A stretch of 64,000 bases of DNA from Armatimonadota bacterium (GTDB lineage: Bacteria > Armatimonadota > UBA5829 > DSUL01), in the NCBI GenBank assembly GCA_039811685.1, contig JBDHZC010000002.1, positions 520,371-584,370 on the forward strand, read 5' to 3'. Below the pieces are notes generated by a model, which was given only the letters and a program-made list of their open reading frames with translations, ran no database searches and was not told the origin of the DNA. This document shows, piece by piece, positions 1-52,481 of this stretch (position 1 is the stretch's first letter; every line of letters begins with the position of its first letter). A program made the position numbers and the translations under genes.

Positions 1-3000
1 TACGTTGTACTCCCACATCAGAGCGCCAACGCGCGACCCTGACAGATTGCTGATGCCCCTGTTTTTGCTGTCCCCGCGGAACTTGGACCATGTGACGGAG
101 GAGACGTATGTGATGCCATCGCTTACGCCCACGGCGCTCCACAACCCAGCCTTGTTGCGCGCCTTGACAGCGAAGTAGTACGTCTGACCCGGGTTCAGAC
201 TCAATCCGGAGCGGCTGATCTGTGTCGCCGCGCCTGCGCTGGTGAAAGGCACAACATCCGTACCGCCAGGCGAGGTTCCGATAGCGTACTGAAACTCGGC
301 GATGCCGCCCTGAGGATCTGAAGCGCTCCACGAAGCCTGCAGGAAATCTCCGGAAGCTGTCACATCGCCGTCGTCTGTAACCACCGGCGTGCTTGGCGGC
401 GTCGTGTCCACAGCAATACCGTCACTCGTACCAACCTGGCTCCACAGATTGACGCTGTTGCGCGCTCGCACCGCAAAATAGTAAACAACGCCTTCAGAGA
501 GACTCAGTCCATTGCGGGTGACAGAAGGCGTTATGCCGGTTGATGTCCAGTTGACGACACTTGTGCCTCCGGGTGAAGTGCCGATGGCATACTGATATTC
601 GACAATGGCCGTATGCGGCTCAGAAGACGACCAGACCGCATGCAGCGTGTTTGTCGAAGAGGTGTACTCCCCGTCATCCGTGACAGCCGGCCTGGACGGC
701 GCGCTGGCGTCAACGGTGATGCCGTTGCTAGTCCCGACAGCGCTCCACTGACTGGCATTGTTGCGCGCTTTGACAGCAAAGTAATACGTCTGACCGTCCT
801 GAAGGCTCAGACCGGCTCTTGTAACCTGCAGCGCCGTGCCGGCCGATGTCCAGTTGACCACATCCGTAGCGCCAGAAGTCGTGCCGATGGCGTACTGGTA
901 CTCCGCGATACCGCTTTGCGCGTCTGCTGCGCTCCAGGAAGCGTGCAGCGAGGCGTTCACGGTGGTAAACTCCCCATCATCAATCACTGTCGGAGTGGAT
1001 GGAGGAGAGGAGTCAATGATTATGCCATCGCTGACGCCAACCGCGCTCACTAACCCTGCGCCGTTGGTAGCCCGGACTGAGAAGTAATAGACTCCACCTT
1101 CCGTCAGATTCAGGCCACTTCTGGTAACCTGCGTATCTGTGCCCGCAGATGTCCAGTTGACGACGTTGGTCAACCCGGGCGCTGTCCCGATCGCGTACTC
1201 ATACTTCGCTATGCCACTCTGCGGGTCGCTGGCAGCCCATGACGCGTGTAGCGACGTGGCGGAGGAGCTGTAAGCGCCGTCATCAGTGACGGTTGGCTGG
1301 GTCGGAGGAGTGCGATCGACAGTGATACCGTCGCTGACGCCGATGGGACTCATCACACCGACGGCGTTGCGCGCGCGCACAGCAAAGTAGTAGGTGACCC
1401 CGTCCTGCAGCGAAAGCCCGGAGCGCGTAACGCCCGCCGTCGTACCTGTCGAAGTCCAGTTGACGATGTTGGTAGCGCCGGAGGTCGTCCCAATCGCATA
1501 CTGATATTCAGTGATGCCACTCACTCCCGGGTCCGCCGTCCATGTTGCGTGAAGCGTCGTGCCGGACTGAGTGTAATCTCCGTCGTCTGTGACGACCGGC
1601 CGCCCAGGACCGCTTGAGTCCACGGTAATTCCATCGCTGAAACCGGAAGAGCTCCAGTGTCCGGCCTGATTCAAAGCCCGAACCGAGAAATAATAGGTTA
1701 CGCCGTTTTGCAGGTTGAGACCGGTGGCTTCCACAAAGCTGTTGGTCCCGGTCGAAGTCCAGTTCACGACGTTGCTGGAGCCCGGGCTGGCGCCGATGGC
1801 GTACTGGTACTCAGCAATCCCGCTTTGAGGGTCTGAGGCGCTCCAGGTAGCGTGGAGTGTATCCGTTGAAGACGTGTAAACTCCGTCATCCGTGACTACG
1901 GGAGTCGTAGGCGGCGAGCGGTCAATCGTGATACCGTCGCTTGACCCAACCGGCCCGAGCAATCCCGCGCCGTTACGCGCCCGAACGGAGAAGTAGTAGG
2001 TGACTCCCTCCGCCAGCGAAAGCCCGGAGCGAGTGACGGACGTAGTTCCTCCAACTGAGGTCCAGTTGACTACATTTGCCGCGCCAAGCGTAGTGCCGAT
2101 GGCGTACTGATACTCGATAACGCCACTTTCAGGGTCTGAAGCGCTCCAGGTTGCGTGCAGGCTGTCTGTGGCGCTGGAGAAGGCGCCATCGTCGGTCACA
2201 ACCGGGGCGGAGGGCGCGCTGCCGTCCACTGTGATGCCGTCGCTGACACCAACAGCGCTCCACAGTCCTGCGCCGTTTCTGGCTTTCACGGCGATGTAGT
2301 AAACAACTCCGTCCTGTAGCTGCAGGCCTGTCGCCGTCGCCTGCAGCGCCGTGCCAGCGGATGTCCAGCCCAGAACATTTGTGGCGCCTGGTGTGGTACC
2401 AATGGCGTATTGATACTCTGCGATTGCACTCTGGACATCGGTGGCAATCCAGCTACCGTGAAGCTGATTGCGCTGCGAAGTGTACTGCCCGTCGTCTGTC
2501 ACCACCGGCGTAGAAGGCGGCGTCAGATCCAGCCGGATCCCGTCACTCACACCAACAGAGCTCCACAAATCGGCCCCGTTGCGCGCGCGGACGGAAATAT
2601 AGTAGGTCACCCCGTCCTGCAGAGAAAGCCCGGTGCGAGTCACCTCTGCCGCGCCGCCCGTCGACGCCCATCCGGTCACTTCCGTTCCCCCAGGTGAGGT
2701 GCCGATGGCGTACTGATAATCCGCAATACCGCTTACCGGGTCCGAGGCGCTCCAGACGGCGTGCAGGGAGTTCGCGCTGGAGGTGAATGCGCCGTCATCC
2801 GTCACGACGGGCGCGCCTGGTGGCGTTCTATCCACCGTAATCCCATCGCTCTTTCCGACCTGACTCACAAGTCCCGCTCCATTGGTGGCGCGAACGTAAA
2901 AATAATAAGTCTGGCCGTCAATCAGCGGGAGGCCATTTCGCGTTACAGTTGTCGCAGACCCTACCGATGTCCAGCCAACCAGGTCGGGATTGGCGCCACC

Positions 3001-4030
3001 GGTCCCTATGCCGTATTCATATCCAACAACCGCAGAGTGTGGGTCCGAAGACGACCACCACGCCCGCAGCGTGTTCGGCGACGAAGTAAACTGCCCGTCA
3101 TCTGTAATCAGAGGCGTCGTCGGTGGGCTGGAATCCACAATCACGCCATCGCTGAAGCCCACCTGACTCAGTTGACCTGCGCCGCTGGTTGCCCGGACAG
3201 AAAAGTAGTACGTGGTCCCGTCAGTAAGCGACAGCCCCGTAGCTGTGACACTGGTCGCGTTTGTCTGTGTCCAGCCCTTGACGTCCGTCTGACCCTGTCC
3301 GGAGCCGATTGCGTACTCGTAGAACGCGATACCGGATTCTGGATCACTGCTTGACCAGGTCGCATGCAGGGAACTGGAGCTCGTGCTGTAGCTGCCATCA
3401 TCCGTGACAACCGGTGTCGATGGCGGAGTGCGGTCCAGTTTGATGCCGTCGCTTGTGCCAACGCTGGAAACCAGGCCAGCGGCATTTGTAGCCCGCACGG
3501 AGAAATAGTAGGTTACGCCATCCTGGAGATTCAGTCCCGCGCGCGTAACGGAAGCTGTTTGTCCGGTAGATGTCCAGCCGACAACATTAACCGCTCCCGG
3601 CGATGTACCTATCGCGTACTCGTAGAGTGTAATGCCGCTTTCAGCGTCTGCCGAAGTCCAGGACGCGTGCAGTGAGGTGCTGAGGTTTGTGTACTGCCCG
3701 TCGTCCGTCACCACCGGCGTAGAAGGCGGCGTGAAGTCCACGGTGATTCCGTCTGAGACGCCGATGTCCGACCAGACGCCTGCGCCGTTTTTGGCCTTTA
3801 CACTGAAATAGTAGCGTGCGCCGTTGGTCAGGGCCAGCCCGCTGCGCGTCACCGAAGCAGCCGTGCCAGTTGACGTCCATCCAAGCACGTCCGTACCGCC
3901 GGAGGTGGTTCCGATAGCGTACTGGTACTCGCTGATTCCGGTCTCCGGATCCGAGGCAGACCAGGTCGCGTGCAGAGATGTAGCGCTGGTGCTGTAGCTG
4001 CCGTCGTCAACAACGACCGGAGTTGTTGGG
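1..4030 (-). repeat. Tandem array of about 13.3 near-identical 303-bp coding repeats (one FN3 domain each)
   Basis: The conserved motif (RC of EYQYA: gcgtactgatactc and variants) recurs at about 283, 586, 890, 1192, 1497, 1800, 2101, 2405, 2707, 3010, 3312, 3614 and 3916. The period is 302-304 bp, with high nucleotide identity between units. Confidence 0.85.
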
Positions 4031-5151
4031 GGCGTACTATCACGCACAAACGAATAGAGTTTGCCGTCGCTGCACCCCGCGTAAAGTGTCCCGTCCTGAG
4101 CGATAGCGGCCGAGCTGTAGCCAGACCCGCCCAGTGACGACTGCCACAGGATAGAGCCATCCGGCTGAAACGCGTACAGCTTGCCGTCGAAAGACGGGCA
4201 ATAAATCGTGTCGTCTCCGCCGACGGCTGGGGAAGCCTGAATTTTGTCCCCTGTCGCGGTGCGCCACTTGAGCGTGCCTTGAGGAGTAATTGCGTAGAGA
4301 TAGGTATTGTCTGAACCTATGTAAATGGTGCCATCAGAGCCTATGGCCGGTGAAGATGTCACTGCCGCGCCAATGTTGTAGCTCCAGTTCAGCACGCCAG
4401 CCTGAACAGCGTACAGATAGCCGTCCGCGCTCGCTATGTAGACGACTCCGGCGCTGTCGATGGCCGGAGAGGAGTCGAGACGGTTAGAGGCTCGATAACG
4501 CCATGCCCGCGTACCGTTTGGCTGCAAGCAGTACAGGTAGCCGTCCTGCGCTCCGAAATAGATCCGTCCGTCCGCGCCGATTGCCGCTGAAGACAGGATC
4601 GGAAACGCCACGTAGTAATTCCACTTGATGGAACCGTTCGAGTTAATCGCGTAGAAACGGCCGTTTGTCGATCCGCAATACACTGTTCCATCAGGCGCTA
4701 CTGCCGGGGAAGCCTTGACCTGCTTCCCAATACCAGTGCGCCACTTCAGAGTTCCGGATGACGTAATGGCGTAAACATAATAATCATCTGACCCGACGTA
4801 GACTGTTCCGTCTGATCCAACAGTTGGCGAAGAATAGCTGCCGGAGTGGACGTTGTAGCGCCACTTCTGTGTGCCGTCCGGATTGACGGCGTAAAGGTAC
4901 TGATCCTGCGAGACAAAGTAAACTGTCCCGTCCGGCGCCACCGCCGGCGATGAAGATATGCCTGCGCCTGTGGTGAATGTCCAGCCCGCAATTCCCACCG
5001 ACGGCCCGACGGTTGCCGTCCGTCCAGTACCGCGGATATCGGCACGGAAGCGTGGCCACCCGCTCTGGGCAAGCTGCGCCAGAGAAGGAGCTGATGCGGC
5101 TGCCAGCCCTGCCGAAACGAGCACAGCGATTGCTATTGACCTGATGCGCAC
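1..5151 (-). CDS. Giant secreted protein, partial (continues beyond window start). Signal peptide, then a PQQ-like beta-propeller (about 4030-5050), then at least 13 tandem 101-aa fibronectin type III-like domains (1-4030). GTG start at 5151 after a GGAGGAGGAAG RBS.
   Basis: Minus-strand frame with codons at 3k+1..3k+3 is open from 5151 to position 1. The ORF track does not report it because there is no stop in the window. Reverse-complement translation gives V/MRIRSIAIAVLVSAGLAAASAPSLAQ (signal peptide), then repeated G-x-x-Y/DG-x-x-Y-A motifs of PQQ/BamB-like blades. After that come repeated units containing SDGI[TV]VD, EYQYAIGT and YYF[SA]V[RK]A motifs, typical of FN3. Confidence 0.8.
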   Translation of the reverse strand, partial: MRIRSIAIAVLVSAGLAAASAPSLAQLAQSGWPRFRADIRGTGRTATVGPSVGIAGWTFTTGAGISSSPAVAPDGTVYFVSQDQYLYAVNPDGTQKWRYNVHSGSYSSPTVGSDGTVYVGSDDYYVYAITSSGTLKWRTGIGKQVKASPAVAPDGTVYCGSTNGRFYAINSNGSIKWNYYVAFPILSSAAIGADGRIYFGAQDGYLYCLQPNGTRAWRYRASNRLDSSPAIDSAGVVYIASADGYLYAVQAGVLNWSYNIGAAVTSSPAIGSDGTIYIGSDNTYLYAITPQGTLKWRTATGDKIQASPAVGGDDTIYCPSFDGKLYAFQPDGSILWQSSLGGSGYSSAAIAQDGTLYAGCSDGKLYSFVRDSTPPTTPVVVDDGSYSTSATSLHATWSASDPETGISEYQYAIGTTSGGTDVLGWTSTGTAASVTRSGLALTNGARYYFSVKAKNGAGVWSDIGVSDGITVDFTPPSTPVVTDDGQYTNLSTSLHASWTSADAESGITLYEYAIGTSPGAVNVVGWTSTGQTASVTRAGLNLQDGVTYYFSVRATNAAGLVSSVGTSDGIKLDRTPPSTPVVTDDGSYSTSSSSLHATWSSSDPESGIAFYEYAIGSGQGQTDVKGWTQTNATSVTATGLSLTDGTTYYFSVRATSGAGQLSQVGFSDGVIVDSSPPTTPLITDDGQFTSSPNTLRAWWSSSDPHSAVVGYEYGIGTGGANPDLVGWTSVGSATTVTRNGLPLIDGQTYYFYVRATNGAGLVSQVGKSDGITVDRTPPGAPVVTDDGAFTSSANSLHAVWSASDPVSGIADYQYAIGTSPGGTEVTGWASTGGAAEVTRTGLSLQDGVTYYISVRARNGADLWSSVGVSDGIRLDLTPPSTPVVTDDGQYTSQRNQLHGSWIATDVQSAIAEYQYAIGTTPGATNVLGWTSAGTALQATATGLQLQDGVVYYIAVKARNGAGLWSAVGVSDGITVDGSAPSAPVVTDDGAFSSATDSLHATWSASDPESGVIEYQYAIGTTLGAANVVNWTSVGGTTSVTRSGLSLAEGVTYYFSVRARNGAGLLGPVGSSDGITIDRSPPTTPVVTDDGVYTSSTDTLHATWSASDPQSGIAEYQYAIGASPGSSNVVNWTSTGTNSFVEATGLNLQNGVTYYFSVRALNQAGHWSSSGFSDGITVDSSGPGRPVVTDDGDYTQSGTTLHATWTADPGVSGITEYQYAIGTTSGATNIVNWTSTGTTAGVTRSGLSLQDGVTYYFAVRARNAVGVMSPIGVSDGITVDRTPPTQPTVTDDGAYSSSATSLHASWAASDPQSGIAKYEYAIGTAPGLTNVVNWTSAGTDTQVTRSGLNLTEGGVYYFSVRATNGAGLVSAVGVSDGIIIDSSPPSTPTVIDDGEFTTVNASLHASWSAADAQSGIAEYQYAIGTTSGATDVVNWTSAGTALQVTRAGLSLQDGQTYYFAVKARNNASQWSAVGTSNGITVDASAPSRPAVTDDGEYTSSTNTLHAVWSSSEPHTAIVEYQYAIGTSPGGTSVVNWTSTGITPSVTRNGLSLSEGVVYYFAVRARNSVNLWSQVGTSDGIAVDTTPPSTPVVTDDGDVTASGDFLQASWSASDPQGGIAEFQYAIGTSPGGTDVVPFTSAGAATQISRSGLSLNPGQTYYFAVKARNKAGLWSAVGVSDGITYVSSVTWSKFRGDSKNRGISNLSGSRVGALMWEYNV

Positions 5152-5233
5152 TCCCGACTTCCTCCTCCATACCAGAGCGCATTTGCCAGAGAGGCTAAGC
5201 ACCGATATCCGCGCAAAGTACGATTACTCCTGT

Positions 5234-8200
5234 CTAAGGGGCCGCAATATCCGACTGCTTTCGCGCCAGGATCCGGCGTCTGAGTGTGGTCCCGGAGGAC
5301 TCTGACGAGCTGACACCTGTAACTATCAACGCGTCGCCAAGCGCGGGCTTGGTGAGGGAGCCGCACTGAACCTTGACACCCTGATGCCCGGAGCCATCGT
5401 CAAGGGCTTTGCCGTCGTCTAGATAAAAGAACGGCTCTGCTCCTGTGCCGACATAGGTCACCTTGCCGGCCATTCTGATAAGCAGACCCACGTTGTTGGA
5501 ACCCAGGAATGCCGAGCCGATATTCGTGTTGATGAGCAACCCTGTACCGCCGATGCTGAAGCTGCGCATGGTGAGCGGCGCCGGAATCACTCCGGCCGGA
5601 TTGACCACCGTCACGTTTGAAGCGGTAATCTGGCGCTCGCTGCCGACAGTCTCAATCGTGCCCATAATATCCACTACGTTGCCTTCCTGGACATTCGCAT
5701 TGGTGACAACTTTGATTCCTGCGACACGGTTGGGTTCTTCAATGTAGAAGATACCGCCCAGCTGATCTGTCCCGGCAATAGCCACCTTGCCTGATATGGA
5801 AACACTCGTTCCGTCGCTCAGGGCCTTGGCTGCCTCGATGGTGGGCACGACAATAGCATTCGGGTCATTCAACGTCCTGCCAACCAGACGTTTGGACGCG
5901 TTTTTGAAACGGGAGTAGAAAACAGCCTGCGCTGAAGCGCCGCCAGCAATGACGGGGGCGTACTCTGAATAGTTCGAACTCGCCATCACTGTCGGATTGG
6001 CGTCAATCACAATCCCCGCTGCGTTCAGCCGGGTGAGGTAGATGTCGTAGTTGGATACTGCAGCGCGATTGTCCTGCCAGGCAACGATGTAGTTGGAGCC
6101 TGCCCAGCACAGACTGGGCGCGCTCTGCTCATTCGGAGCCGTGACAATCGCCAGATCACTTCCAACAACCGCAGCCGCCGTGGACAGTCGCGTTCCGTAG
6201 ATATCAAAGACGTAGTTGTTCCGCGCGTCCGACCAGACGACCAGATACTCAGAGCCATTGTAGGCTATCTTCGGTTGCGCCTTCAGGGACGGCGCGGACG
6301 AAAGCTGCACTCCCGCGGCCTGGCCGATCGAGCCGTTGTTCAGCACTTTTGTCGCGTAGATGTCGCCCTGACCCGAGCGCTGATCCTGCCAGACCACCAT
6401 GAAATCCGTGCCGTCCGAAGCTACGGAAGGCTCAAGCTGATCGCCCAGAGCCCCACTCACGACGCCGCTAAGAGGCATCAACGCGCCGGCAGAAGTGACA
6501 AAAGTCCCCATAATATCGGTGAAGTAGTTCGGCGCGAGGCCGGTTCGCTGGTCGCGCCACACAACGAGATACTTCGTACCGTTCCACGCTATGGAAGGCT
6601 GACTCTGATCGAGATCGGCAGAAGCGATGAGGATAGGGGAACCGACCGGCTGCATGTTCGCGTCCAGCCGAACACCCCGGATATCGTAGCTGTAACCGAT
6701 GAACTCCTTCCACGCCACCAGATAACCCGATCCACTCCACGCGATCGCGGGTTCCAACTGCTCCGCACCCGCGGCCAGCAAGATACCCTGCGCATCCTGC
6801 ACAATGCCGTTGCTGTCAACCCTGGCGCCGTAAATCTGGTAGTAACCGTTGCGGCGATCGGCCCAGACTACTCCGTAACCATTTCCATTCCAGCAGGCTG
6901 CATAGGATGGCTGGCTCTGAATCGCGCTTGAAACGAGATTGGTGCTTACGATTCCTCCGAAGACGTTCATCTTCGTTACGAACACGTCGGAGTTCGTCGG
7001 ATCAATGGTGTACCAGGCGACCAGACCAGGAGCGATACGCGGACCCCTGTTTCCCGTGGAGGCATTGGTGACGACCGGAAACGGCTGCAAATCGAGAGTC
7101 TGAGCGCTGCTGTTCAGCCTGCAACCTTTGATGTAGCGCGTGCCAACCTGACGGTCCCGCCACACCACCATAAACTGCGTTCCGTCCCAGGTAATGTCCG
7201 GTATCTCCTGATCCCCACTGCCCGGAAAGATAGACTTGCCGCCGGTATCGACCACCGACCCGGCTGTTGTGTATCGCGTCCCGTAGATGTCGAGATCGCT
7301 TCCTCTGCCGTCCTGCCAGACAATAATAGCTGTCCCGGTGGAATCGCACGCCACAGACGGGGAGAGCTGCGGGCCCAGAGCCCCGGCGGCAGGAGCGCCC
7401 GCGCGGTTTGAGATCAGAGTGTCACCGCCCTGCTTCTGTGTGGAGGAGTTGATGCGGCAGCCGTAGATGTCCGTGTCGCTTGATTCAGAGTTGCGCTGGT
7501 CTTCCCAGACCACCACGTAGTTTGTCCCGTTCCACGCGATATCCGGATTCTGCTGGTTGTCTGCGGTGAAGGCGATAGCCGATCTGTTGGTCACAGCGCC
7601 CGCCGCGGTCACTCGCGCTCCGACAATGTCGAATCCGGTTCCCTGATTCTCCTGCCACACCACGTGCCAGTCCGTGCCGTTGCTGGCCACCGCCGGCAGA
7701 TACTGCTCTGGGACGGGATTGTTAGGATTGATCGGGGCCGTTATCGAAATCGGGAAGCCGTCCGGATCCAGAATGCTGCCGGAGGTGCTGACGCGCGCGC
7801 CGTAGATGTGCGGCTTGGAGTCCACCGCGCGACGGTCCGACCACACCACCAGAAAGTTCGAGCCGTTCCAGGCGACAGCCGGATTCATCTGGTCGCGCGC
7901 CGCGTGACCACCACTCGAGGTAGAAGAGATCAGGAAAGCCTCTCCCATTGCCGGGACGCCGCTGGAATCGAGAAAGATCCCGTAGATGTCGTAGCCCGTA
8001 TCAGGATCATTCGAGGAGTTCAGACGATTTCGGCTGTCCTGCCACACGACGAGATAGCCTGTCCCGCCCGCTGCGACCGCGGGAGCTTCCTGCGTGAAAG
8101 GCGCCGCAACACTGACCTGCCCGACCGGAAACTCCGGACCTGCGGCGATCTCTGCCGCTCGCGCCTCCCCAATCAGAGCGCATCCGGCCAGCGCTACCCA

Positions 8201-8239
8201 TGCGATCAGACTGCTGCGTACGATTGTGCGACTTTTCAT
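5234..8239 (-). CDS. Secreted repeat protein (1001 aa). Signal peptide (MKSRTIVRSSLIAWVALAGCALIGEARA), then about 14 copies of a 55-60-aa repeat (P-x-[VI]A-W-N-G-x-x-[YF]-L-V-V-W-x-D-x-R...D-I-Y-G-x-R), probably a beta-propeller-like fold of unassigned family. Carries the conserved roughly 190-aa C-terminal module shared with 13203-17252 and 17663-19753.
   Basis: ORF 5234..8314. The internal ATG at 8239 is preceded by a GAGG RBS and followed by a canonical signal peptide. Repeat motifs are read directly from the translation. The C-terminal 190 aa align to the C-termini of two other proteins in the window. Confidence 0.75.
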   Translation of the reverse strand: MKSRTIVRSSLIAWVALAGCALIGEARAAEIAAGPEFPVGQVSVAAPFTQEAPAVAAGGTGYLVVWQDSRNRLNSSNDPDTGYDIYGIFLDSSGVPAMGEAFLISSTSSGGHAARDQMNPAVAWNGSNFLVVWSDRRAVDSKPHIYGARVSTSGSILDPDGFPISITAPINPNNPVPEQYLPAVASNGTDWHVVWQENQGTGFDIVGARVTAAGAVTNRSAIAFTADNQQNPDIAWNGTNYVVVWEDQRNSESSDTDIYGCRINSSTQKQGGDTLISNRAGAPAAGALGPQLSPSVACDSTGTAIIVWQDGRGSDLDIYGTRYTTAGSVVDTGGKSIFPGSGDQEIPDITWDGTQFMVVWRDRQVGTRYIKGCRLNSSAQTLDLQPFPVVTNASTGNRGPRIAPGLVAWYTIDPTNSDVFVTKMNVFGGIVSTNLVSSAIQSQPSYAACWNGNGYGVVWADRRNGYYQIYGARVDSNGIVQDAQGILLAAGAEQLEPAIAWSGSGYLVAWKEFIGYSYDIRGVRLDANMQPVGSPILIASADLDQSQPSIAWNGTKYLVVWRDQRTGLAPNYFTDIMGTFVTSAGALMPLSGVVSGALGDQLEPSVASDGTDFMVVWQDQRSGQGDIYATKVLNNGSIGQAAGVQLSSAPSLKAQPKIAYNGSEYLVVWSDARNNYVFDIYGTRLSTAAAVVGSDLAIVTAPNEQSAPSLCWAGSNYIVAWQDNRAAVSNYDIYLTRLNAAGIVIDANPTVMASSNYSEYAPVIAGGASAQAVFYSRFKNASKRLVGRTLNDPNAIVVPTIEAAKALSDGTSVSISGKVAIAGTDQLGGIFYIEEPNRVAGIKVVTNANVQEGNVVDIMGTIETVGSERQITASNVTVVNPAGVIPAPLTMRSFSIGGTGLLINTNIGSAFLGSNNVGLLIRMAGKVTYVGTGAEPFFYLDDGKALDDGSGHQGVKVQCGSLTKPALGDALIVTGVSSSESSGTTLRRRILARKQSDIAAP

Positions 8240-8690: not shown

Positions 8691-9329
8691 TTAGCCTGCC
8701 TTCTTCTCACCGTAGTCCGGCATCTTTCGCATCGTCATCCCCTTAGGGAGATCAAACTTTGAGTCCGCTACGGGGACACCGGTCTTGTAAGACTTGTAGG
8801 TGTAGGTCACCGTGTCCGTAGCCTTCACGCCAGTCGTGATAAGCTTCAAAGGTTCATAGCTGACGGGCCTCACCCACAGCTTGCACTTCCACTTTGTCTT
8901 GGACTCGGTATAGGTGTACACGTTGGCTGGCTTTCCACCGATTTTTTCCGTTCCCACCTTCCTGGCGCCCTGGCTCTGGAGAAATTTCTGAACGTTGCCA
9001 ATCGGTCCAGGTACGTAGCTCATAGGAGTATCGCGAAGAGTACCCCTGGGATATTCCACAATGAACTTTCTCGCGCTGTTCACCATGAAGGTGCCTTTGG
9101 AGTTCTTAATTGCCTGCAGCCTTATTCCCGGTGAGTCCATATCCCAGTAGAAGAAGTCGCCCTTGATAGTCATGGAACGAGGACCCATATCACCCTGAGG
9201 AGACTTCGCCGAGACCTGATAAACTGTAGTGTCCGGCTTTGCGGACTTGGAAGGCTTAACCGGTGCGGCCAGTACAGCCTGAGATGCCAGAAGTGCGGCC
9301 AGAAGCCCACCTGTAATGGTCTTGTTCAT
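8691..9329 (-). CDS. Secreted hypothetical protein (about 212 aa), Lys/Thr/Tyr-rich. Possibly a LolA-like or lipoprotein-sorting fold; tentative.
   Basis: ORF 8691..9371. The ATG at 9329 is preceded by GAGGAGAGAA and followed by the signal peptide MNKTITGGLLAALLASQAVLAAP. No recognisable catalytic motif. Confidence 0.6.
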   Translation of the reverse strand: MNKTITGGLLAALLASQAVLAAPVKPSKSAKPDTTVYQVSAKSPQGDMGPRSMTIKGDFFYWDMDSPGIRLQAIKNSKGTFMVNSARKFIVEYPRGTLRDTPMSYVPGPIGNVQKFLQSQGARKVGTEKIGGKPANVYTYTESKTKWKCKLWVRPVSYEPLKLITTGVKATDTVTYTYKSYKTGVPVADSKFDLPKGMTMRKMPDYGEKKAG

Positions 9330-10027: not shown

Positions 10028-10927
10028 TTACTTATTGGGCTGAAAGATACCCCCCCTTGTGACGTACTCAATGTCGACCAGGAGCTTGCAGCAGGCCGGA
10101 TTCTCGAGAGTATTCGCGATACCGGTCCCTGGGCCTGTCGGGCTCGGGAACGCCGGAGAGGCGCCGATGCAGGCATCCATAACACCAAGCTCAAAGTCGC
10201 CGAGGATCAGACCGGCGCTCACAGTGTCACCAGCGGAAGCAGCGGCCTCAGCCGAGCTCAGCCAGGAGAGCAACTGCGGATACAGGCACTCGTCGCTGAT
10301 CAGCGGAACCTCGTCCAGACCGAACGGGAGCTCGTGGAACAGGCGGACGGCGTTGGCGATTGAGCCAAGCGTAGCGTCCACATGCCACTTCCACACTTCC
10401 TGATGCACGTAGGCCGGCGGGTTCGGGCCAGCGCCATCGTCATCGTACGGAAGGGTTGTTCCGTAGAGGATGGTCAGGGTCCAGTTCGTGCCAGGCACTT
10501 CATACATCAGCGGCCACCAGGTTCGAATGTTCGCGGTGCCCTGCTGAGGGATGTTCTTCACGGGGAAGACATCGCTGCACTGAATGTACGGAGGCGTGGT
10601 CTTCTGAAGAACAACGTTCTTGATGCTCCACGCATTGCCGGACTGTCCAGCACTGATGTGCGGGATGCCGTCTTTGGCGGCGCCGACAAAGTTCTCCCAG
10701 TTGGCGCCGCCCTCGATGGACAGAACGCCAGGAACGGCGCTGATCACGTCAGAGCCGGCGCCAAGGTAACCCTTGGAGCTGAGATTGGTGCCATTGCTGT
10801 CGCCAGGATAGGCCTGGTAGACGGCGATCGACTGATGGGTGATCGGAACGCTCGCGACGCGGGCAGCATTTGCCCCGACGGAGAGGACCGTAGCACCAGC
10901 CACAAACAGCGGTAGATACTTATTCAA
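10028..10927 (-). CDS. Secreted hypothetical protein (about 300 aa, Gly/Asn/Pro-rich). TTG start with AAGGAGG RBS.
   Basis: ORF 10028..11278. The in-frame TTG at 10927 is preceded by AAGGAGGAACTAC and followed by the signal peptide (M)NKYLPLFVAGATVLSVGANAARVAS. The upstream extension has no signal peptide and no RBS. Confidence 0.6.
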   Translation of the reverse strand: MNKYLPLFVAGATVLSVGANAARVASVPITHQSIAVYQAYPGDSNGTNLSSKGYLGAGSDVISAVPGVLSIEGGANWENFVGAAKDGIPHISAGQSGNAWSIKNVVLQKTTPPYIQCSDVFPVKNIPQQGTANIRTWWPLMYEVPGTNWTLTILYGTTLPYDDDGAGPNPPAYVHQEVWKWHVDATLGSIANAVRLFHELPFGLDEVPLISDECLYPQLLSWLSSAEAAASAGDTVSAGLILGDFELGVMDACIGASPAFPSPTGPGTGIANTLENPACCKLLVDIEYVTRGGIFQPNK

Positions 10928-11838: not shown

Positions 11839-13077
11839 ATGAGTAGAAAAAACGAACAACAGTTTAGAAGCGCCATCAGACTTTGGAGCCTCGCGGCAAG
11901 TGTTGCCATTGCGGCATTCTGCGCGACCTCCGGATTCGCGGATGCGTTTTTCCACATGGACGCCCAGCGCACCGGCCGTGCGGAGTTTTCCGGTCCATCA
12001 ACCGGCGCAGTCCTCTGGCGTTACCAGACCGGAGGGCTGATAACCTCATCTCCCTCTGTCGGGCCAGATGGCACTATCTATGTGGGGTCCTTTGACCGAA
12101 AGCTGCACGCCGTACTTCCCACCGGAACCCGTCAGTGGGCCTTCACCACAGGTGGCTACGTCGGATCGTCTCCCGCGGTGTCCAGCTCTGGGGAGATATA
12201 CTTCGGTTCTGACGACGGGTGGATGTACGCCCTGAGCCAAAGTGGCGCGCTGGACTGGAGCTTCCAGACACCGGTACTGGGGCCGACTCCGAGCGGCCCG
12301 ATCTCGAGCGCTCCTGTTCTGAGTGGCAATGATCTGATCTTCACGGCGGATGCCGGACGAGTGTGGAATCTCAACTCTACCACAGGCGCCGCGCAGTGGA
12401 ACTTCCTGATGCCTCAGTTCTCCTACTCTTCACCCACAATCGGCCACAACGGCGACATCTATGTGGGAGACGGAAATGGCAAAGTGTACGCCCTCAGCGC
12501 TGCCGGCCAGCAGCTCTGGTCCTATCAGACCGGAAACCAGATATTTGCGGCGCCAGCGGTCGGCGACGATGGCACTATCTATGCGACCAGCTCCGACGGC
12601 TACCTTTACGCACTTAACCCAAATGGCACACTCAAGTGGAAATATGCCGCTCCGCCAGGAATCGGCACCACTCCAGCCATTGGGCACGATGGCGCCATTT
12701 ATATTGGTGGCGCTGACAGTAAGATTCACGCCATCAGCCCGACCGGACAGCGGAAATGGATTTTCCACACCAATGGGCCAATCTACAGCTCTCCGCTGGT
12801 GGACAAGGACGACAACATCTACTTCGTGAACAACGGTGGGGTATTTCAGTCTGTCACACCTCAGGGAGCGCTGAGGTGGAGTGTTGGCATCGGCTCTGTG
12901 TCTTACTCATCTCCGACAATGGGACCGGACGGCATCATCTACGTGGGAGCGAACGACAACTATCTCTACGCCATCGGCCCCTCTGGCTACGTCATCCCTG
13001 AGCCTTCCAGCCTGCTGCAGTTGGCAGGTCTGGTGAGCGGCCTGGCCGCCTTCGGAAGACGCCGCATCCGGCGCTAA
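11839..13077 (+). CDS. PQQ-like (BamB/YxaL-type) beta-propeller repeat protein with a C-terminal PEP-CTERM sorting domain
   Basis: Signal peptide; about 8 repeats of SSP-x-[VI]-x-x-D/G-x-IY-x-G-S-x-D-x-x-[LV]YA-x-x-x-x-G. The C-terminus reads PEPSSLLQLAGLVSGLAAFGRRRIRR (PEP motif, TM helix, Arg-rich tail). Paralogous to the propeller region of the giant protein at 4030-5151. Confidence 0.9.
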   Translation: MSRKNEQQFRSAIRLWSLAASVAIAAFCATSGFADAFFHMDAQRTGRAEFSGPSTGAVLWRYQTGGLITSSPSVGPDGTIYVGSFDRKLHAVLPTGTRQWAFTTGGYVGSSPAVSSSGEIYFGSDDGWMYALSQSGALDWSFQTPVLGPTPSGPISSAPVLSGNDLIFTADAGRVWNLNSTTGAAQWNFLMPQFSYSSPTIGHNGDIYVGDGNGKVYALSAAGQQLWSYQTGNQIFAAPAVGDDGTIYATSSDGYLYALNPNGTLKWKYAAPPGIGTTPAIGHDGAIYIGGADSKIHAISPTGQRKWIFHTNGPIYSSPLVDKDDNIYFVNNGGVFQSVTPQGALRWSVGIGSVSYSSPTMGPDGIIYVGANDNYLYAIGPSGYVIPEPSSLLQLAGLVSGLAAFGRRRIRR

Positions 13078-13202: not shown

Positions 13203-16200
13203 CTACGGATGGGGCACGGCCACGGTGATGTCTGAAGAGCGGCGCACTCTTACAACACGCCTGTAGCCGCCGCTTCCGTCCGGCTCCATTGTGCTGATTC
13301 CTGTAACTGTGACAAAGTCCCCTGCCGCGGGCTTTGCGAGTGTCCCACACAACACCTTCGCCGTAACTGGATCGCTATTGTAGCTTGACCCGTCATTGAT
13401 GGTAAACGAATCCGCAGAGACCGACTCTACCTGGCCACCCACCTTCACGAGAAGTCCGATGTTGTTCAACCCGTAGCCCGTGTGCACACCTGGCGTATTA
13501 GGATTCAGCGCACCGCCGCCCAGTGAGCTCAACCGCATCACGAGCGGAAGTATGGCCGGGTTGCCGGAGAGATTCACCGTGACCGAGCTTGCGTCAATAA
13601 AGCGCTCCCCGTTCAACGTCTGGATTGTGCCGCGCACCGTCACGCTGTCACCCTCCTGGAGAGTCTGTGCCGTGGCGACGCGGATGCCGGAGCTGCGGTT
13701 GGTTTCCTCGATGTAGAGATACTGTGGATACTCCTGCGTGGATCCCGCTGTGACAATCTTGCCGTTTAACAGCACCTGATCACCGTCCGGCAGCGCCTTT
13801 ATGGCAGAAATAGACGCTGTGCCCGAAAGCAAACCGAGGAAATCCGCCTCGGAGCTCATCCCCCACACCGCATTGACAGTCTGCGACGCAGGCGAGAATG
13901 TCCAGGACGGCTTAGCGGCGCTGAGGGAATAGAGTCCGGGAGCGAGATCATCAAGTGTGTACGATCCGTCAAGCGCGGTAAGCGCGGACTTCCCGCCCGG
14001 GCTGGCCGTGATGGTCACTCCGGGCACCCCGTGCTGATCAGTCACGGCCTCATAGCGGTCTGTGATGAAGCCCCAGTCCGAGTTCCCAGGGTCTGACGTC
14101 AGCACAATCTTCAGAGAATCACCGTTCACCCACTCAGACCAGACGTCACTGTAGTGCCCGGTGAAAGTATCAATGATCTGATCGCTGGAGTCCGTAACAT
14201 CAATGAAGTCAAATCCGGGCTCCACCTCCAGGCGCGTGAAGTGCACCCGGATCTTGGAAGCCCCTTGCGGCCCCTGCACAGTGTAGGTCTCCGAGACGTT
14301 GTCACCATAAGGATGCTGAGACTGCAGTACAACCGCTTCCTGCACAGTCGTCCCGACAGTCACAGACCCCGTGATCGTCGCTGGCGGACGCGCTGTGAAG
14401 TTAACTCCCGAGAGCGTGCTGCCCGGGGAAGGCTCAGCGCTCCGGGCGTTTGGCTGGAACTGCCAGTTTGGATACGAAGGCGTCACGGTGTAGGACACAG
14501 GCTCCAGCCCCGACAGAGTATAAGCGCCTCCCACGCCGGTAGTTGTGGTATGGTTGCCTGGCTGAGCTGTAACAGTGACGCCGGCAGGAGCGGGCTCTGT
14601 CAACAAGTCCGTTTCGTAGCCATCCATCCTGAAGCCGTAGTCCACACCTGTTGCGTCCGTCACCAGATGCAGTACCAGCGCATTGCCGGGCACCCACTGG
14701 CTCCAGTAGTCCGTCTTGTTGCCGGTGATGTCCTGATAAGGAGTCCCGTCAGCATCCTCAATGTAGAGATGATCCAGACCATTCTGCAGCGCCACTTCGT
14801 CAAAGTGAGCGCGGATATGCGTAGCGCCCACAGGTCCTGTCACCGTGTACTTCACATCGGAGTTGTTCTGGTAGTTGTGCGGTGATTCGACTTCGTAAGC
14901 CGTCACACCGCCCAGAGCTTTTTGAATGACACCGCTGATAGACGCAGGGGCCGCAGAGCCGGTGAAATCAACCCCCGGCGCCGCCTGATCTGCCACAACT
15001 ACTGCCGTACTTGGCGGAGCGAACGTCCAGCCGGTCTTGGCGGCAGAGACGGTGTAGCTGTCCGCCGGCAGGCGCAGAGTGTAGCGTCCGTTAGCGCCCG
15101 TTGTCGTGTCTTTGGTCGCGCTGGACCCTGTCGCTGTGACCGTGGCTCCCGCGATGGGATTTCCGGACGTGGACAGCAGCGTTCCCGTAATATAGGAACC
15201 TGGAAGGTGACCGGAGGCCACAAGCGCAAAAGGCTGCGGGCCGCCTGGAACGCTAAAGCCTGTGACCGTGACCGTATAAACGCCCGTCAAAGGCACGCTG
15301 ACGTCCACGCTTTCAACATTGTTGACGCTGTCTGTGGCGCCGTTGCCGCGGTAAACTGTGCCGTTGGGAGCCGTGACAGAGAGATTCAGATCATTCACCA
15401 GCTCTTTGGCTGCCAGAGGAGAGCCTGGAGGATCAGTCCACACCAGCGTCACCGCAAACGGAGCGTCGCTTCCAAGCACCGTGTACTGATACGTGCGCGT
15501 CTGCCCCGTTGAAATACCGGAGGTTTCGTCCACATATTCGATCTGCCTGGGCGCTGGCGGGTCTATGGCGGCATTCACATCCACGCGCCCCCAGCCTTCA
15601 ACGCTGTTCGGGCGCACGGGAATCTCAGGAGGCACGGCTCCGATATACTGCCCCGGCGCCATGTCTTTTGCGCTGTTGAGCAGCGCCGCCTTCACGAGCG
15701 CGGCGCTTGGAGCTATGCCAAACGATGAGTTCAAATACTGTCTGAGGAGGACGGCCGAGCCTGCCACCGCCGGAGCAGAAAAGCTGGTGCCACCCCAGTA
15801 GCTGTAGTGAGAATCATACGGCATCCATCCCGGGTTGCCGACAAGCTGGCTGCTCAAAGCCACAATATTTGTGCCGGGCGCGCAGATATCGGGCTTGATG
15901 CGACCATCGGCGCATGGGCCGCGGCTGCTCCACGCCGCCATGCCGCTCGGATTGTCAGAAATTGGATCGCTGTTTATCGGCGCCTGTGGGAAATCTGACC
16001 CCCAGTACGTCCCGTAGGACTGGGAGCGGCCGGTGGCGCGCAGGCTCTCAGTGGCGCCCACGGAAATACAGTTTTTCGCAGTGGCGGGGGAATAAAGCGC
16101 GCCGGAGTCAGTCCGTCCGTCAGCGTTTGCGTCCACGCCGTCGTTTCCTACGGGAAAGACCAGAACCGCGTCTTTATGATTCCAGACGAAATCGTCCACC

Positions 16201-17252
16201 TGCTGCGAAAGTGTTGTGTACTTCCCCTCCACAGGGGATCCCCAACTGTGGTTCTGAACGCGGGCGCCGTCCAGATAGGGCGGCTGGAAGAGCTGCGAGA
16301 GAGTCACGGGCGGATAGACAAAGGAGCTTCCGTCACCTATGGACTGCATGATAATGGAAGCCTCAGGCGCAACCCCGCAAAAGGAATCTGTATACGTGTG
16401 GGAGCCAGCGTTGGAGCCAGACAGCGCTCCCGAGCCTGCCGCCACAGACACGCAGAAAGTGCCGTGCCCGCTCAGGTCGCTCCAGTCGTCTGGGCGGCGC
16501 AGAGCGTACGTCTTGATAACGCGGCCGGCCAGGTCCGGGCTCAGTGTAGCCAGGTTGCCAGTGTCCAGACCGGAATCCGCAAAAGAGATGATCTCACCCG
16601 CGCCAAAAAGCCCGGTTCTGTTGCGAACGGGTGTGACACCGATGATGGACTGCACAACGTTGTTGGCAGCGCGCGGAGGCGCCCACTCTTCAATCCAGCG
16701 CACTTCCTCGAGACCCGCAATCCGGTCCAGAGCTCTGGCCGGGATTGTGGCCAGCAGAATGCCGCCCGCCACATCGCTGTCGCGCAACAACTCGCCACCG
16801 CTTGCGCTGATGACCTGGATGACGGTTGTGGCTGCTTCGTCACCAAAGACCCGGATGAGGACTGTCAGGCTCTTCTGCTGAGTCTTTTTTTTCAGGTGAG
16901 GATCAATACGATAGCGAGCATGCAGCCTTCCCATCCAGGCGATACAGGCAAGCCCGCGCACCTTGGCAATCTGAGAGCGTTTGAGACGCGCTATGTAGGC
17001 GTTCTCCGGCAGGTAGTCCCGCAGCTTGACACCCATCTTCTGAAGTGAAGCCTTCCACTCTGGTCGGGGTGTCCCGCTGAACTGGAGGATGTAGTATCCA
17101 CCGCGAGAGGGCGTCAGGCTCTGAAGCTGCACTGTGCTCTTTACTTCCCTGTCCACCGGTCCAGCTTTCAGCAGCAGAGGCGCGGGGGCGCTCCAGACGC
17201 TGGTTGCAGCCATCAAACAAAGGAAGACAGAGATCAGAAAGGGTCTGTTCAT
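13203..17252 (-). CDS. Secreted S8 family subtilisin-like serine peptidase (about 1349 aa). Has an N-terminal prodomain-like region, Asp/His/Ser catalytic triad motifs, carboxypeptidase-regulatory-like (Ig-like) domains and two CUB-like domains. Carries the shared roughly 190-aa C-terminal module.
   Basis: ORF 13203..17360. Internal ATG at 17252 followed by signal peptide MNRPFLISVFLCLMAATSVWSAPAP. Catalytic motifs: ISFADSGLDTG (Asp), LSGHGTFCVSVAAG (His), WGGTSFSAPAVAGSAVLL (Ser). CUB-like units: ESPHNYQNNSDVKYTVTGPVGATHIRAHFDEVALQNGLDHLYIED... and QSQHPYGDNVSETYTVQGPQGASKIRVHFTRLEVEPGFDFIDVTD... Confidence 0.85.
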   Translation of the reverse strand: MNRPFLISVFLCLMAATSVWSAPAPLLLKAGPVDREVKSTVQLQSLTPSRGGYYILQFSGTPRPEWKASLQKMGVKLRDYLPENAYIARLKRSQIAKVRGLACIAWMGRLHARYRIDPHLKKKTQQKSLTVLIRVFGDEAATTVIQVISASGGELLRDSDVAGGILLATIPARALDRIAGLEEVRWIEEWAPPRAANNVVQSIIGVTPVRNRTGLFGAGEIISFADSGLDTGNLATLSPDLAGRVIKTYALRRPDDWSDLSGHGTFCVSVAAGSGALSGSNAGSHTYTDSFCGVAPEASIIMQSIGDGSSFVYPPVTLSQLFQPPYLDGARVQNHSWGSPVEGKYTTLSQQVDDFVWNHKDAVLVFPVGNDGVDANADGRTDSGALYSPATAKNCISVGATESLRATGRSQSYGTYWGSDFPQAPINSDPISDNPSGMAAWSSRGPCADGRIKPDICAPGTNIVALSSQLVGNPGWMPYDSHYSYWGGTSFSAPAVAGSAVLLRQYLNSSFGIAPSAALVKAALLNSAKDMAPGQYIGAVPPEIPVRPNSVEGWGRVDVNAAIDPPAPRQIEYVDETSGISTGQTRTYQYTVLGSDAPFAVTLVWTDPPGSPLAAKELVNDLNLSVTAPNGTVYRGNGATDSVNNVESVDVSVPLTGVYTVTVTGFSVPGGPQPFALVASGHLPGSYITGTLLSTSGNPIAGATVTATGSSATKDTTTGANGRYTLRLPADSYTVSAAKTGWTFAPPSTAVVVADQAAPGVDFTGSAAPASISGVIQKALGGVTAYEVESPHNYQNNSDVKYTVTGPVGATHIRAHFDEVALQNGLDHLYIEDADGTPYQDITGNKTDYWSQWVPGNALVLHLVTDATGVDYGFRMDGYETDLLTEPAPAGVTVTAQPGNHTTTTGVGGAYTLSGLEPVSYTVTPSYPNWQFQPNARSAEPSPGSTLSGVNFTARPPATITGSVTVGTTVQEAVVLQSQHPYGDNVSETYTVQGPQGASKIRVHFTRLEVEPGFDFIDVTDSSDQIIDTFTGHYSDVWSEWVNGDSLKIVLTSDPGNSDWGFITDRYEAVTDQHGVPGVTITASPGGKSALTALDGSYTLDDLAPGLYSLSAAKPSWTFSPASQTVNAVWGMSSEADFLGLLSGTASISAIKALPDGDQVLLNGKIVTAGSTQEYPQYLYIEETNRSSGIRVATAQTLQEGDSVTVRGTIQTLNGERFIDASSVTVNLSGNPAILPLVMRLSSLGGGALNPNTPGVHTGYGLNNIGLLVKVGGQVESVSADSFTINDGSSYNSDPVTAKVLCGTLAKPAAGDFVTVTGISTMEPDGSGGYRRVVRVRRSSDITVAVPHP

Positions 17253-17662
17253 AAGGAGTCCGCCAGGTACACTTGAGGTAGTGGAGGTTACTGGAACAAC
17301 GAATCTGGCCGTTACCGGCACACGCGAAAACAGCCGGGCCCGACACGCAAAACCCCACACATGGAAGTATACCGTACTGCCTGCGCCGAGTATCCAAACA
17401 GGTTTTCTTCACAGGGAGAAGACAAAGGGCTGGAGCCTGGCTGGCCGCCATTACTGTGACTGTAATCTCCATCCGCACGCGAATCGCCGAATACGGCAGC
17501 GAACCTCGATCAATATCCGCTCCGCACAGGCAAAGGTACTGGTTTTGTCCGCGAAGCGCCCCGCTGAGGGCACGAAAGACGTATAATAGATAAGAACCAC
17601 TTCTTCCCTGACCCTGCGTCCGCCGCACAGTCACAAACGAGACCAACCACAGGAGCCTTCCT

Positions 17663-19753: not shown

Positions 19754-19856
19754 GCTCAGCGCTCAGACGCCAGGCCGTTGCACGCGAACAGCCGAAGCGA
19801 TTGGTCTGGCGGCTGTCTGGCAGGACTCTGGGGGAGGTCTGGCTAAGACAGCAAGC

Positions 19857-25275: not shown

Positions 25276-25343
25276 GTCAGTAGAAGCCTCCCAGTTGGAC
25301 TCCGGCGTCTGAGGCACGGTGAGGCGAACGGCGTGATTCATTC

Positions 25344-49925: not shown

Positions 49926-52481
<2,556 letters not shown>

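Follow-up and report, generated by a model that had tools for sequence, protein, structure and literature searches.

A giant propeller–FN3–propeller protein from an uncultured Armatimonadota bacterium and the C-terminal module it shares with neighbouring secreted proteins

The first 5151 positions of the window, the 64,000-nucleotide stretch of DNA that we analysed, are the 5′ 73% of one giant gene on the minus strand (codons 1–1717 of 2345), whose host is an uncultured Armatimonadota bacterium. Over the 1741 codons between 5223 and base 1 the frame is free of stop codons, and it continues past the window edge. This agrees with the first-pass annotation, which had described the frame as open across the whole of 1–5151 and had read the short ORFs in other frames as shadows of the giant gene. 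The GTG at 5151 is the likely start and is identical to the gene start called in the Logan contig L001. The following features were identified in the giant gene:

5161..5168, minus strand: Shine–Dalgarno-like GGAGGAGG, 9 nt 5′ of GTG 5151, read directly from the sequence
5074..5151, minus strand: Sec-type signal peptide VRIRSIAIAVLVSAGLAAASAPSLAQ with a basic start, a hydrophobic core and an SLA-Q cleavage-like site, read directly
4036..5061, minus strand: propeller 1, an 8-bladed PQQ-like/BamB-like β-propeller (HMM coordinates; PF13570, PF13360)
97..4032, minus strand: 13 FN3-like units of 101 aa each (unit 3: 100 aa), with P-P-S/T-T-P linkers between them
1..90, minus strand: first 30 residues of propeller 2 (propeller HMM, E = 3.5e-10), the remainder lying outside the window and complete in L001

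The missing 3′ part was taken from L001 (L001:9519–16556), giving a full gene of 7038 bp that encodes a very acidic protein of 2345 aa (pI 4.5). Its domain order is signal peptide, propeller 1, 13 FN3 units, propeller 2, a 14th FN3 unit and a C-terminal module of ∼200 aa. The Pfam scores given below and this full product bear out the earlier reading of a single gene whose large product is secreted or of surface type and carries 13 FN3 units behind an N-terminal PQQ-like propeller. In kind, the giant gene encodes an ordinary large repeat-containing surface protein, in which the C-terminal module is what stands out most.

Both propellers scored above the Pfam cut-offs for PF13570 (cut-off 133 bits) and PF13360 (cut-off 27.6 bits), with 182.7 and 128.9 bits for propeller 1 and 209.3 and 146.8 bits for propeller 2 (from L001). 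In both, a DGT[IV]Y motif recurs eight times with a period of ∼40 residues, indicating eight blades. In these respects they resemble other 8-bladed propellers of these Pfam families, but here they form part of a secreted protein of 2345 aa. Database names such as ‘PQQ-binding-like beta-propeller repeat protein’ and ‘outer membrane protein assembly factor BamB’, together with sub-threshold matches to both kinds of model, would fit propellers that catalyse as PQQ-dependent dehydrogenases, or a protein that assists outer-membrane assembly in the manner of BamB. However, the PQQ-dependent alcohol dehydrogenase model TIGR03075 scored 55.3 bits against a cut-off of 480, and TIGR03300 (211.7 versus 285.2 bits) and NF008351 (171.2 versus 423) stayed below their NCBIfam cut-offs even when summed over the two propellers. 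In addition, the signal peptide, read directly, has no lipobox (lipoprotein) cysteine and the 2345-aa multi-domain architecture resembles neither family, so that either function is very improbable. Instead, we predict that both propellers act as heads that bind ligands or proteins, and not as PQQ enzymes.

Sequence comparisons support the FN3 assignment. Each of the 13 units was matched by the unit HMM at E ∼1e-45 to 1e-50, the window part of the protein scored 119.5 bits with Pfam fn3 (PF00041; cut-off 25) and FN3 chains of titin in the PDB matched the array (E = 4e-13). An alignment of 14 units displayed the FN3 core motifs LHAxW and YYFxVRARN, corresponding to the two features that define the PF00041 core, a B-strand-region Trp and the F-strand ‘tyrosine corner’ motif Y-Y-x-x-V-x-A-x-N. 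Of its columns, 18 were invariant and a further 27 were conserved in at least 12 of the 14 units.

The first-pass annotation had reported 13 units of ∼303 bp on the minus strand, and this count was reproduced (12 units of 303 bp and one of 300 bp, spanning 4032..97). It had also called the units near-identical at the DNA level, their copy number uncertain through collapse or expansion in assemblies and their evolution driven by recombination. The regular period, the differing unit number among relatives and the identical units of one of these (P0004, see below) would all suit a recent, unstable, probably mis-assembled array with ongoing recombination, but other properties of the array speak strongly against it. 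Pairwise DNA identity between units was only 0.52–0.69 (mean 0.62; amino-acid mean 0.60), Tandem Repeats Finder reported no array (0 rows) and the longest exact repeat in the array was 26 bp, compared with 11–13 bp in shuffled sequences. The high unit identity and long exact repeats of a VNTR-like array are therefore lacking. Third-codon-position identity between units was 0.36 and the same codon was used at identical residues at a frequency of 0.372, versus 0.360 expected from codon usage; synonymous sites between units are saturated. Unit identity was independent of unit offset, neighbours being no more alike than distant units, and the array of the window gene gave no indication that units had recently been duplicated or converted. 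The 13 repeats are thus old and diverged, ∼60% alike, which itself indicates a sound assembly. Indeed, L001 agreed with the window sequence at all 8239 bp compared, L002 and L003 each differed from it by one mismatch, and an identical 2345-aa product was obtained from a 709-kb NCBI contig and another Logan contig. Since all 13 units are present in at least four assemblies, array collapse is not a concern and this worry can be dropped. For the window gene, a recent near-identical array is refuted and has next to no probability.

The order propeller–(FN3)n–propeller–FN3–module is kept in ∼70 homologues, the named ones all from Armatimonadota, while the central FN3 count n ranges from 4 to 25. 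Between relatives, propellers were most similar by position (54–55% identity for propeller 1 and 61–64% for propeller 2, versus 39% between the two propellers of one protein), and the two are thus positionally orthologous. The FN3 units, by comparison, had no positional orthology (best matches on the diagonal in 17 of 336 cases), which fits interchangeable spacers between two specific heads. In the relative P0004 the FN3 units are identical, which indicates a recent expansion of its array. Of the earlier claim that the array evolves by recombination, the part that concerns relatives is supported by these counts and by P0004, whereas the window gene itself bears no recent trace of it. Our literature search found no paper on any member of this family. 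A fixed frame with a variable rod makes these proteins a natural test case for rod-length tuning in bacterial surface proteins, in a poorly studied and mostly uncultured phylum.

The giant gene is located in a conserved cluster of secreted-protein genes. The following further genes were annotated in the window:

5234..8239, minus strand: 1001-aa secreted protein, upstream of the giant gene, with the same C-terminal module (5240–5893)
8691..9329, minus strand: 212-aa secreted protein, conserved in synteny
10028..10927, minus strand: 299-aa protein, conserved in synteny, its gene followed by a terminator-like hairpin (9962–9933)
11839..13077, plus strand: stand-alone propeller paralogue with a PEP-CTERM tail
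13203..17360, minus strand: S8 subtilase that has CarboxypepD_reg domains and, at its C-terminus, the same module (13221–13850)
17663..19753, plus strand: DUF1565/NosD-like β-helix protein with a choice-of-anchor Q domain, with the same C-terminal module (19133–19747)

No terminator-like site was found in the 82-nt gap between the 1001-aa gene and the giant gene, and the former is syntenic in L005 and L009. Signal peptides were readable on the giant protein and on its module-bearing neighbours. In another clade, with 13 units, the giant gene adjoins exosortase (EpsH/EpsI) and EPS-biosynthesis genes; we saw this association in no other clade, and neither the window and its own clade nor P0043 has it.

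As proposed earlier, propeller 1 is paralogous to the product of 11839–13077 (37% identity, E = 1e-70). That protein ends in VIPEPSSLLQLAGLVSGLAAFGRRRIRR*, in which a PEP motif, a hydrophobic helix and a basic tail can be read directly, although PF07589 scored 18.0 bits, slightly under its 20.7 cut-off. The domain shuffling between the two proteins that had been suggested is not recent: the paralogue is as distant from propeller 1 as from propeller 2 of the giant protein (∼37% identity), and each of these is closer to its positional counterpart in relatives (54–64%). Whether the giant protein itself ends in the shared module or a PEP-CTERM, a question raised with the first annotation, was settled from L001: the module is present and PEP-CTERM is absent. 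The C-terminus reads ...SVLRPRRQSDIE* and follows a soluble domain, PF07589 gave no match and the succession of PEP motif, hydrophobic helix and basic tail is missing. Likewise, we detected neither an LPXTG nor an RTX or type I secretion signal on the giant protein.

The C-terminal module is common to four large proteins within 20 kb (the giant protein and three others in the window) and no Pfam or NCBIfam model matched it above threshold. A search recovered 5109 cluster representatives at E ≤ 1e-3. In 126 of 150 representatives the module lies within 5 residues of the C-terminus; it is internal in 22 of the 150 and tandemly duplicated (2–4 copies) in 28. Its cargo is varied, with 93 Pfam families in 46 proteins, and an N-terminal hydrophobic segment was present in 81 of 109 long representatives. 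A structure model of the copy in the 1001-aa neighbour (5237–5851), which shares 36% identity with the copy that the giant protein carries outside the window, was obtained with a pLDDT of 91.7 and a pTM of 0.88. In Foldseek searches it matched double-OB proteins over its full length, and the module is accordingly modelled as a tandem OB-fold, i.e. a five-stranded closed β-barrel, twice. Sequence matches to BOF and tRNA_anti-codon were weak and all under the family cut-offs: BOF (PF04076) gave 12.4 bits (E = 0.17; cut-off 25.8) for the module of the giant protein and sub-threshold matches in 4 of 32 family members (best E = 4.5e-5). The modules are acidic (median pI 5.1), which makes charge-only binding to anionic LPS, EPS or DNA unlikely.

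Based on these features, we favour, with moderate confidence, a role for the giant protein as a long-reach surface or matrix adhesin, in which the module attaches the protein and two binding heads are kept apart by the FN3 rod. Following export by Sec, the double-OB module would tether the giant protein, by non-covalent binding, to some component of the cell envelope or exopolysaccharide matrix, and may play the same holding role in the many secreted proteins, otherwise unrelated, that it terminates. Propeller 2 would then lie close to the attachment point, assuming this to be the cell-proximal end. As an FN3 domain is ∼3.5–4 nm long, the 13 units would form a spacer of ∼45–50 nm that holds propeller 1 out at a distance, and the unit number, the feature that varies between relatives, would set the reach.

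Alternatively, the module could be a secretion address read by machinery dedicated to outer-membrane translocation or processing, as in type IX secretion, with the protein then released or covalently attached. Its strictly C-terminal position in most representatives, the great diversity of its cargo, the clustering of several module-bearing genes, the small proteins conserved in the cluster and its placement after a choice-of-anchor domain would all be expected of such a signal. However, the tandem and internal copies fit a binding domain better, no candidate machinery was identified, and the module had no likeness to the type IX C-terminal domain or any NCBIfam sorting model; we regard this explanation as unlikely. 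Somewhat less likely again is a released biofilm matrix scaffold, predicted to cross-link exopolysaccharide or other cells by means of the OB module and both propellers. Some OB folds bind oligosaccharides, and the acidity of the protein, its several binding modules and the EPS neighbourhood in the 13-unit clade are in line with a scaffold, but that neighbourhood does not extend to the window's own clade or P0043.

Whichever way it acts, the module may tentatively be viewed as a previously undescribed, Armatimonadota-wide address that directs secreted proteins to surface or matrix attachment, or to dedicated export or processing. It represents an uncurated family with thousands of members, on proteases, β-helix enzymes and propeller proteins, and merits follow-up. 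Knowledge of its ligand or partner would show how exoproteins are displayed or retained in Armatimonadota, and would also allow better annotation of thousands of ‘hypothetical’ C-termini in metagenomes.

Staphylococcal SasG/Aap and RTX adhesins of the LapA/MpIBP type are long repeat-stalk adhesins. The giant protein resembles them in its rod of many tandem Ig/FN3-like domains, which would likewise project binding domains, in a repeat number that varies among relatives and in being acidic and exported. In contrast, it has a propeller head at each end of the rod and a terminal tandem OB-fold module, and its repeats are old and diverged where those of the adhesins are typically near-identical. 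Diverse exoproteins are attached non-covalently to an envelope polymer by SLH and CWB2, folded modules that sit at a protein terminus and often occur as tandem copies. The OB module is similarly folded, terminal, sometimes tandem and found on diverse exoproteins, and may tether them in the same way, but its fold is unrelated, and profile searches of these proteins reported no SLH or CWB2 models. It also differs from BOF/YgiW and from the double-OB proteins HIN-200 and Deinococcus/Thermus SSB in being extracellular, acidic and C-terminal in multi-domain proteins, and our analysis of sequence and predicted structure gave no evidence of nucleic-acid binding. Other surface proteins carry C-terminal sorting tags, such as GlyGly-CTERM with rhombosortase (PMC3237569) and MYXO-CTERM with myxosortase (PMC11980579). 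Like these, PEP-CTERM and the type IX tags, the module forms the very C-terminal end of numerous secreted proteins that are unrelated to one another and come from one phylum, with several copies per locus and a position after a choice-of-anchor domain, and the same genome has PEP-CTERM on a paralogous propeller. However, PEP-, GlyGly- and MYXO-CTERM are short motifs of three parts that include a transmembrane helix, and the type IX C-terminal domain is a β-sandwich of ∼80–100 aa, whereas the module is a soluble, predicted tandem OB-fold of ∼200 aa that is sometimes duplicated or internal. If the address reading is correct, the module would be the counterpart of PEP-CTERM, SLH and the type IX C-terminal domain on a different fold, and the propeller–(FN3)n–propeller proteins would be its largest cargo, with a rod length tuned by unit number.

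The minus-strand frame that reaches base 1 of the window was free of stop codons from position 5223 downward (1741 codons), and the remaining two minus frames carried 58 and 40 stops. The likely start of the giant gene is GTG 5151, with GGAGGAGG nine bases 5′ of the GTG; gene calling on a public contig of identical sequence gave the same start. Following the start, the protein carries a Sec-type N-terminal signal peptide (VRIRSIAIAVLVSAGLAAASAPSLAQ), and would be exported by Sec. A [VIT]DDG motif occurred 13 times at a spacing of 101 residues, with one spacing of 100, which defines 13 FN3 units. Across the window, an HMM of the unit matched these 13 alone, each with an E value between 1e-45 and 1e-50. 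Both the open frame and the 303-bp periodicity, as the first-pass annotation had claimed, are real and far beyond chance. With the off-window part read from a Logan contig (L001), the full gene measures 7038 bp and encodes 2345 aa, in the following order.

Layout of the giant protein, from N- to C-terminus
N-terminus (-), signal peptide, Sec-type
Window 4036-5061 (-), propeller 1, after the signal peptide
Window 4032..97 (-), 13 FN3 units, after propeller 1
Window 1-90 (-), first 30 residues of propeller 2, the rest in L001, after the 13 units
Off window (L001), 14th FN3 unit, after propeller 2, 50-61% identical to the other units
Off window (L001), C-terminal module of ~208 aa, last part, ending ...RPRRQSDIE and the stop

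PEP-CTERM is absent from the full 2345-aa product, whose C-terminus was read from L001. The protein is strongly acidic (pI 4.5), with a net charge near -61 on the FN3 array by itself.

The array had been described as near-identical units of a kind whose copy number is uncertain in assemblies. Neither statement survived comparison with the sequence. The same gene was recovered from other contigs as follows.

Contigs carrying the giant gene
L001, 62.9-kb Logan contig, 0 mismatches to the window over 8239 bp
L002, NCBI MAG contig, 1 mismatch to the window
L003, second Logan run, 1 mismatch to the window
709-kb NCBI contig, 2345-aa product identical
Further Logan contig, 2345-aa product identical

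In the short-read MAG GCA_020846715.1 (L002 and MCC6484010.1), the gene falls on two contigs, as differently named partial products of 2006 and 338 aa. The split comes close to where propeller 2 ends, outside the FN3 array. The concern over a collapsed or uncertain copy number does not hold for this gene.

The units are old. Nucleotide identity between pairs ranged from 0.52 to 0.69 (mean 0.62), mean amino-acid identity was 0.60, and identity at third codon positions was 0.36. At residues common to two units, the codon was the same in 37.2% of cases, compared with 36.0% predicted from codon usage, and synonymous sites are therefore saturated. The longest exact repeat within the 3.9-kb array was 26 bp (11-13 bp in shuffled controls). 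Tandem Repeats Finder, run on window 1-8000, returned no rows; the array is too diverged for it, and units were delimited from the protein motif instead. Identity remained near 0.59 at every offset from 1 to 12 units, independent of distance apart, and nothing in this array points to recent gene conversion or to recent duplication of neighbouring units. The claim of near-identical repeats, which had made the finding look fragile or dynamic, is wrong, and the original observation is confirmed in part. The units passed Pfam fn3 (119.5 bits against a cut-off of 25), matched titin FN3 domains by sequence and retained the core motifs LHAxW and YYFxVRARN. Conserved in the units are an opening DDG and a closing SDG; we speculate that these might form inter-domain metal sites. 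As an FN3 domain is 3.5-4 nm long, the run would make a spacer of roughly 45-50 nm.

Propellers 1 and 2 both scored above the PF13570 and PF13360 cut-offs, and each has eight blades, with DGT(I/V)Y recurring every ~40 residues. They fell below the curated models for PQQ-dehydrogenase (55 bits against a cut-off of 480) and BamB (212 bits against 285). Therefore, 'PQQ' in the database names labels a fold and not a function, and the giant protein was rejected both as a PQQ enzyme and as BamB. Nor did membership tests place it among PEP-CTERM proteins or type IX secretion substrates. The stand-alone propeller at 11839-13077, which has a readable PEP-CTERM tail, is 37% identical to propeller 1 (E=1e-70), confirming the proposed paralogy. 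It is equally distant from propeller 2, so recent domain shuffling with the PEP-CTERM protein is not indicated. The earlier interpretation is supported in part: paralogy held, and the doubt over copy number did not.

When 8000 candidates were scored against the full protein, 1414 reached E<=1e-20, and the first 80 of 120 listed homologs were parsed with local HMMs. About 70 of these 80 share one frame: propeller, (FN3)n, propeller, one FN3 and the C-terminal module. All named homologs among those listed were 'Armatimonadota/Armatimonadetes bacterium' MAG proteins. The central array of the parsed homologs had n = 4, 5, 6, 7, 8, 10, 13, 16 or 25. Among the homologs listed, n = 13 was the commonest class (about two dozen proteins, 43-48% identical to the window protein), and the nearest relatives (54-64% identity) had n = 7, 8, 10, 16 and 25; unit number therefore changes over evolutionary time. 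One homolog, P0004 (L005:10001-20668), has 25 central units, some 100% identical to each other; it has recently expanded in the way that had been imagined for the window array, but in another genome. A 3-unit super-repeat, an idea drawn from n = 4, 7, 10, 13, 16 and 25, was rejected because n = 5, 6 and 8 also occur and because identity is flat across offsets 1-12. Concerted evolution maintaining the 13 units was likewise rejected: units within the protein (0.59 identity) are no more alike than they are to units of its closest relatives (0.55-0.60), whose own counts are 7, 8, 10, 16 or 25.

Propeller 1 was nearest to the relatives' propeller 1 (54-55%) and propeller 2 to their propeller 2 (61-64%), with only 39% identity between the two within the giant protein. 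Judged from these alignments, the propellers are positionally orthologous across relatives. For FN3 units compared with 13-unit homologs, 17/336 best matches lay on the diagonal, about the chance level, so there is no positional orthology; units were equally similar to those of relatives and to one another. This pattern fits two specific heads with interchangeable spacer domains between them. Both propellers may be binding heads, with FN3 unit number determining their reach. Unrelated proteins of other phyla carry this FN3 subtype too, in arrays of 18-28 units; C1A peptidases, an M6-like metalloprotease and several FG-GAP proteins are among them.

The last ~200 residues of the giant protein have counterparts at the C-terminus of three further large window proteins.

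Window proteins sharing the C-terminal module
13203-17360, S8 subtilase, 43% identical to the giant protein's module
5234-8239, 1001-aa protein immediately upstream of the giant gene, 36% identical
17663-19753 (+), beta-helix protein, 26% identical, module directly after a choice-of-anchor Q domain

No Pfam or NCBIfam model matched the module at its cut-off; sub-threshold OB-family matches recurred among its members (tRNA_anti-codon 8/32, BOF 4/32). A first structure model, from 4 sequences, was poor (pLDDT 61) and was replaced by one from a 32-sequence alignment; in this model, of the copy at 5237-5851, the module folds as a tandem OB-fold, and a search of a viral fold library with it gave generic OB matches only. 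Residues Y36, R42, E72, R73, N120 and D146, in the numbering of that copy, are conserved. Word-index searches found 2 and 7 homologs, and an exhaustive HMMER profile search was needed to recover 5109 cluster representatives at E<=1e-3 (3571 at E<=1e-10). Ten of ten representatives whose clusters were looked up carried no name. A single-protein scan of the genome collection gave one distant MAG locus, so the taxonomic range rests on few named matches.

The module lies no more than five residues from the C-terminus in 126/150 best representatives; 22/150 have an internal module, and 28/150 have two to four copies. Its cargo spans 93 Pfam families across 46 proteins, including beta-helix/NosD, S8 peptidase, several propeller types, amidase, glucose/sorbosone dehydrogenase and Ig/FN3 domains, and a hydrophobic stretch at the N-terminus is present in most of the long members. 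The main rival explanation for such a shared tail is that it is a secretion or processing address and not an anchor. We favour a double-OB module that would keep the giant protein and other cargo on an envelope or matrix component. The modules are acidic (median pI 5.1), which speaks against a simple affinity for polyanions, DNA for instance.

The 1001-aa gene, which starts at ATG 8239, and the giant gene are separated by 82 nt with no terminator-like site, so co-transcription is possible. In two other Armatimonadota genomes (L005 and L009), the order PEP-CTERM propeller, ~300-aa protein, ~212-aa protein, ~1000-aa module protein and giant gene is kept, each partner being a confirmed homolog with 31-51% identity. 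The corresponding window genes, at 8691-9329 (-) (212 aa, with a signal peptide) and 10028-10927 (-) (299 aa), thus accompany the giant gene in conserved order in three genomes, and may be partner proteins for the module-bearing ones. The 212-aa protein has only sub-threshold LolA-like matches (NF053572, E=0.0024; PF09865, E=0.17). Two secreted-type genes adjoin the cluster: the DUF1565/NosD-like beta-helix gene at 17663-19753 (+) and a pectate-lyase-like gene with a Golvesin_C domain at 19665-21578 (+). These ORFs overlap by about 90 bp as listed, so one start was probably called too early.

In three sampled 13-unit loci (L006, L007 and L008; P0013, P0022 and P0036), the giant gene sits between glycosylation-type PMT/GT2/YdjC genes and an exosortase EpsH-EpsI-EPS biosynthesis cluster. 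A 10-unit homolog locus had neither this context nor the synteny cluster, and no EpsH/EpsI homologs were found within the window. Pro/Thr/Ser linkers between FN3 units might, speculatively, be O-glycosylation sites. A second rival is that the giant protein is a released matrix scaffold, as opposed to one held at the envelope. Downstream of the giant gene, L001 encodes a phosphoribosyltransferase and a TamB-like protein, the latter agreeing with an organism that has an outer membrane.

No RNA genes lie under the giant gene and the window has no tRNAs; its single Rfam match, far away, is a c-di-GMP-I-GGC riboswitch (RF03167) at 41838-41949 (+), with 67.2 bits against a gathering score of 59. Just 3′ of it, a 124-aa ORF at 41995-42369 (+) is similar to the anti-sigma-28 factor FlgM (35.6 bits with TIGR03824, a little short of its cut-off of 40.75), which suggests flagellar gene expression under c-di-GMP control. 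The region at 40-42 kb has an unusual AT skew (0.20) and lower GC (0.546). Housekeeping neighbours at ~34.3-41.4 kb (-), 49929-52100 (+) and 24496-25437 (-) comprise ATP synthase (alpha, gamma, beta and subunit a), NAD-dependent DNA ligase and a pilin-like N_methyl/DUF1559 protein.

The protein is named 'PQQ-binding-like beta-propeller repeat protein' at NCBI, and our literature search on this architecture and module found nothing. Judged by the curated libraries and the literature searched, three features appear to be undescribed: a double-OB module at the C-terminus as a shared address, a fixed frame of two propellers and an FN3 rod of variable length. The finding as a whole is of modest interest, most of which comes from the C-terminal module with its lack of a curated model; in kind, the giant protein is a repeat-stalk surface protein made from known folds.
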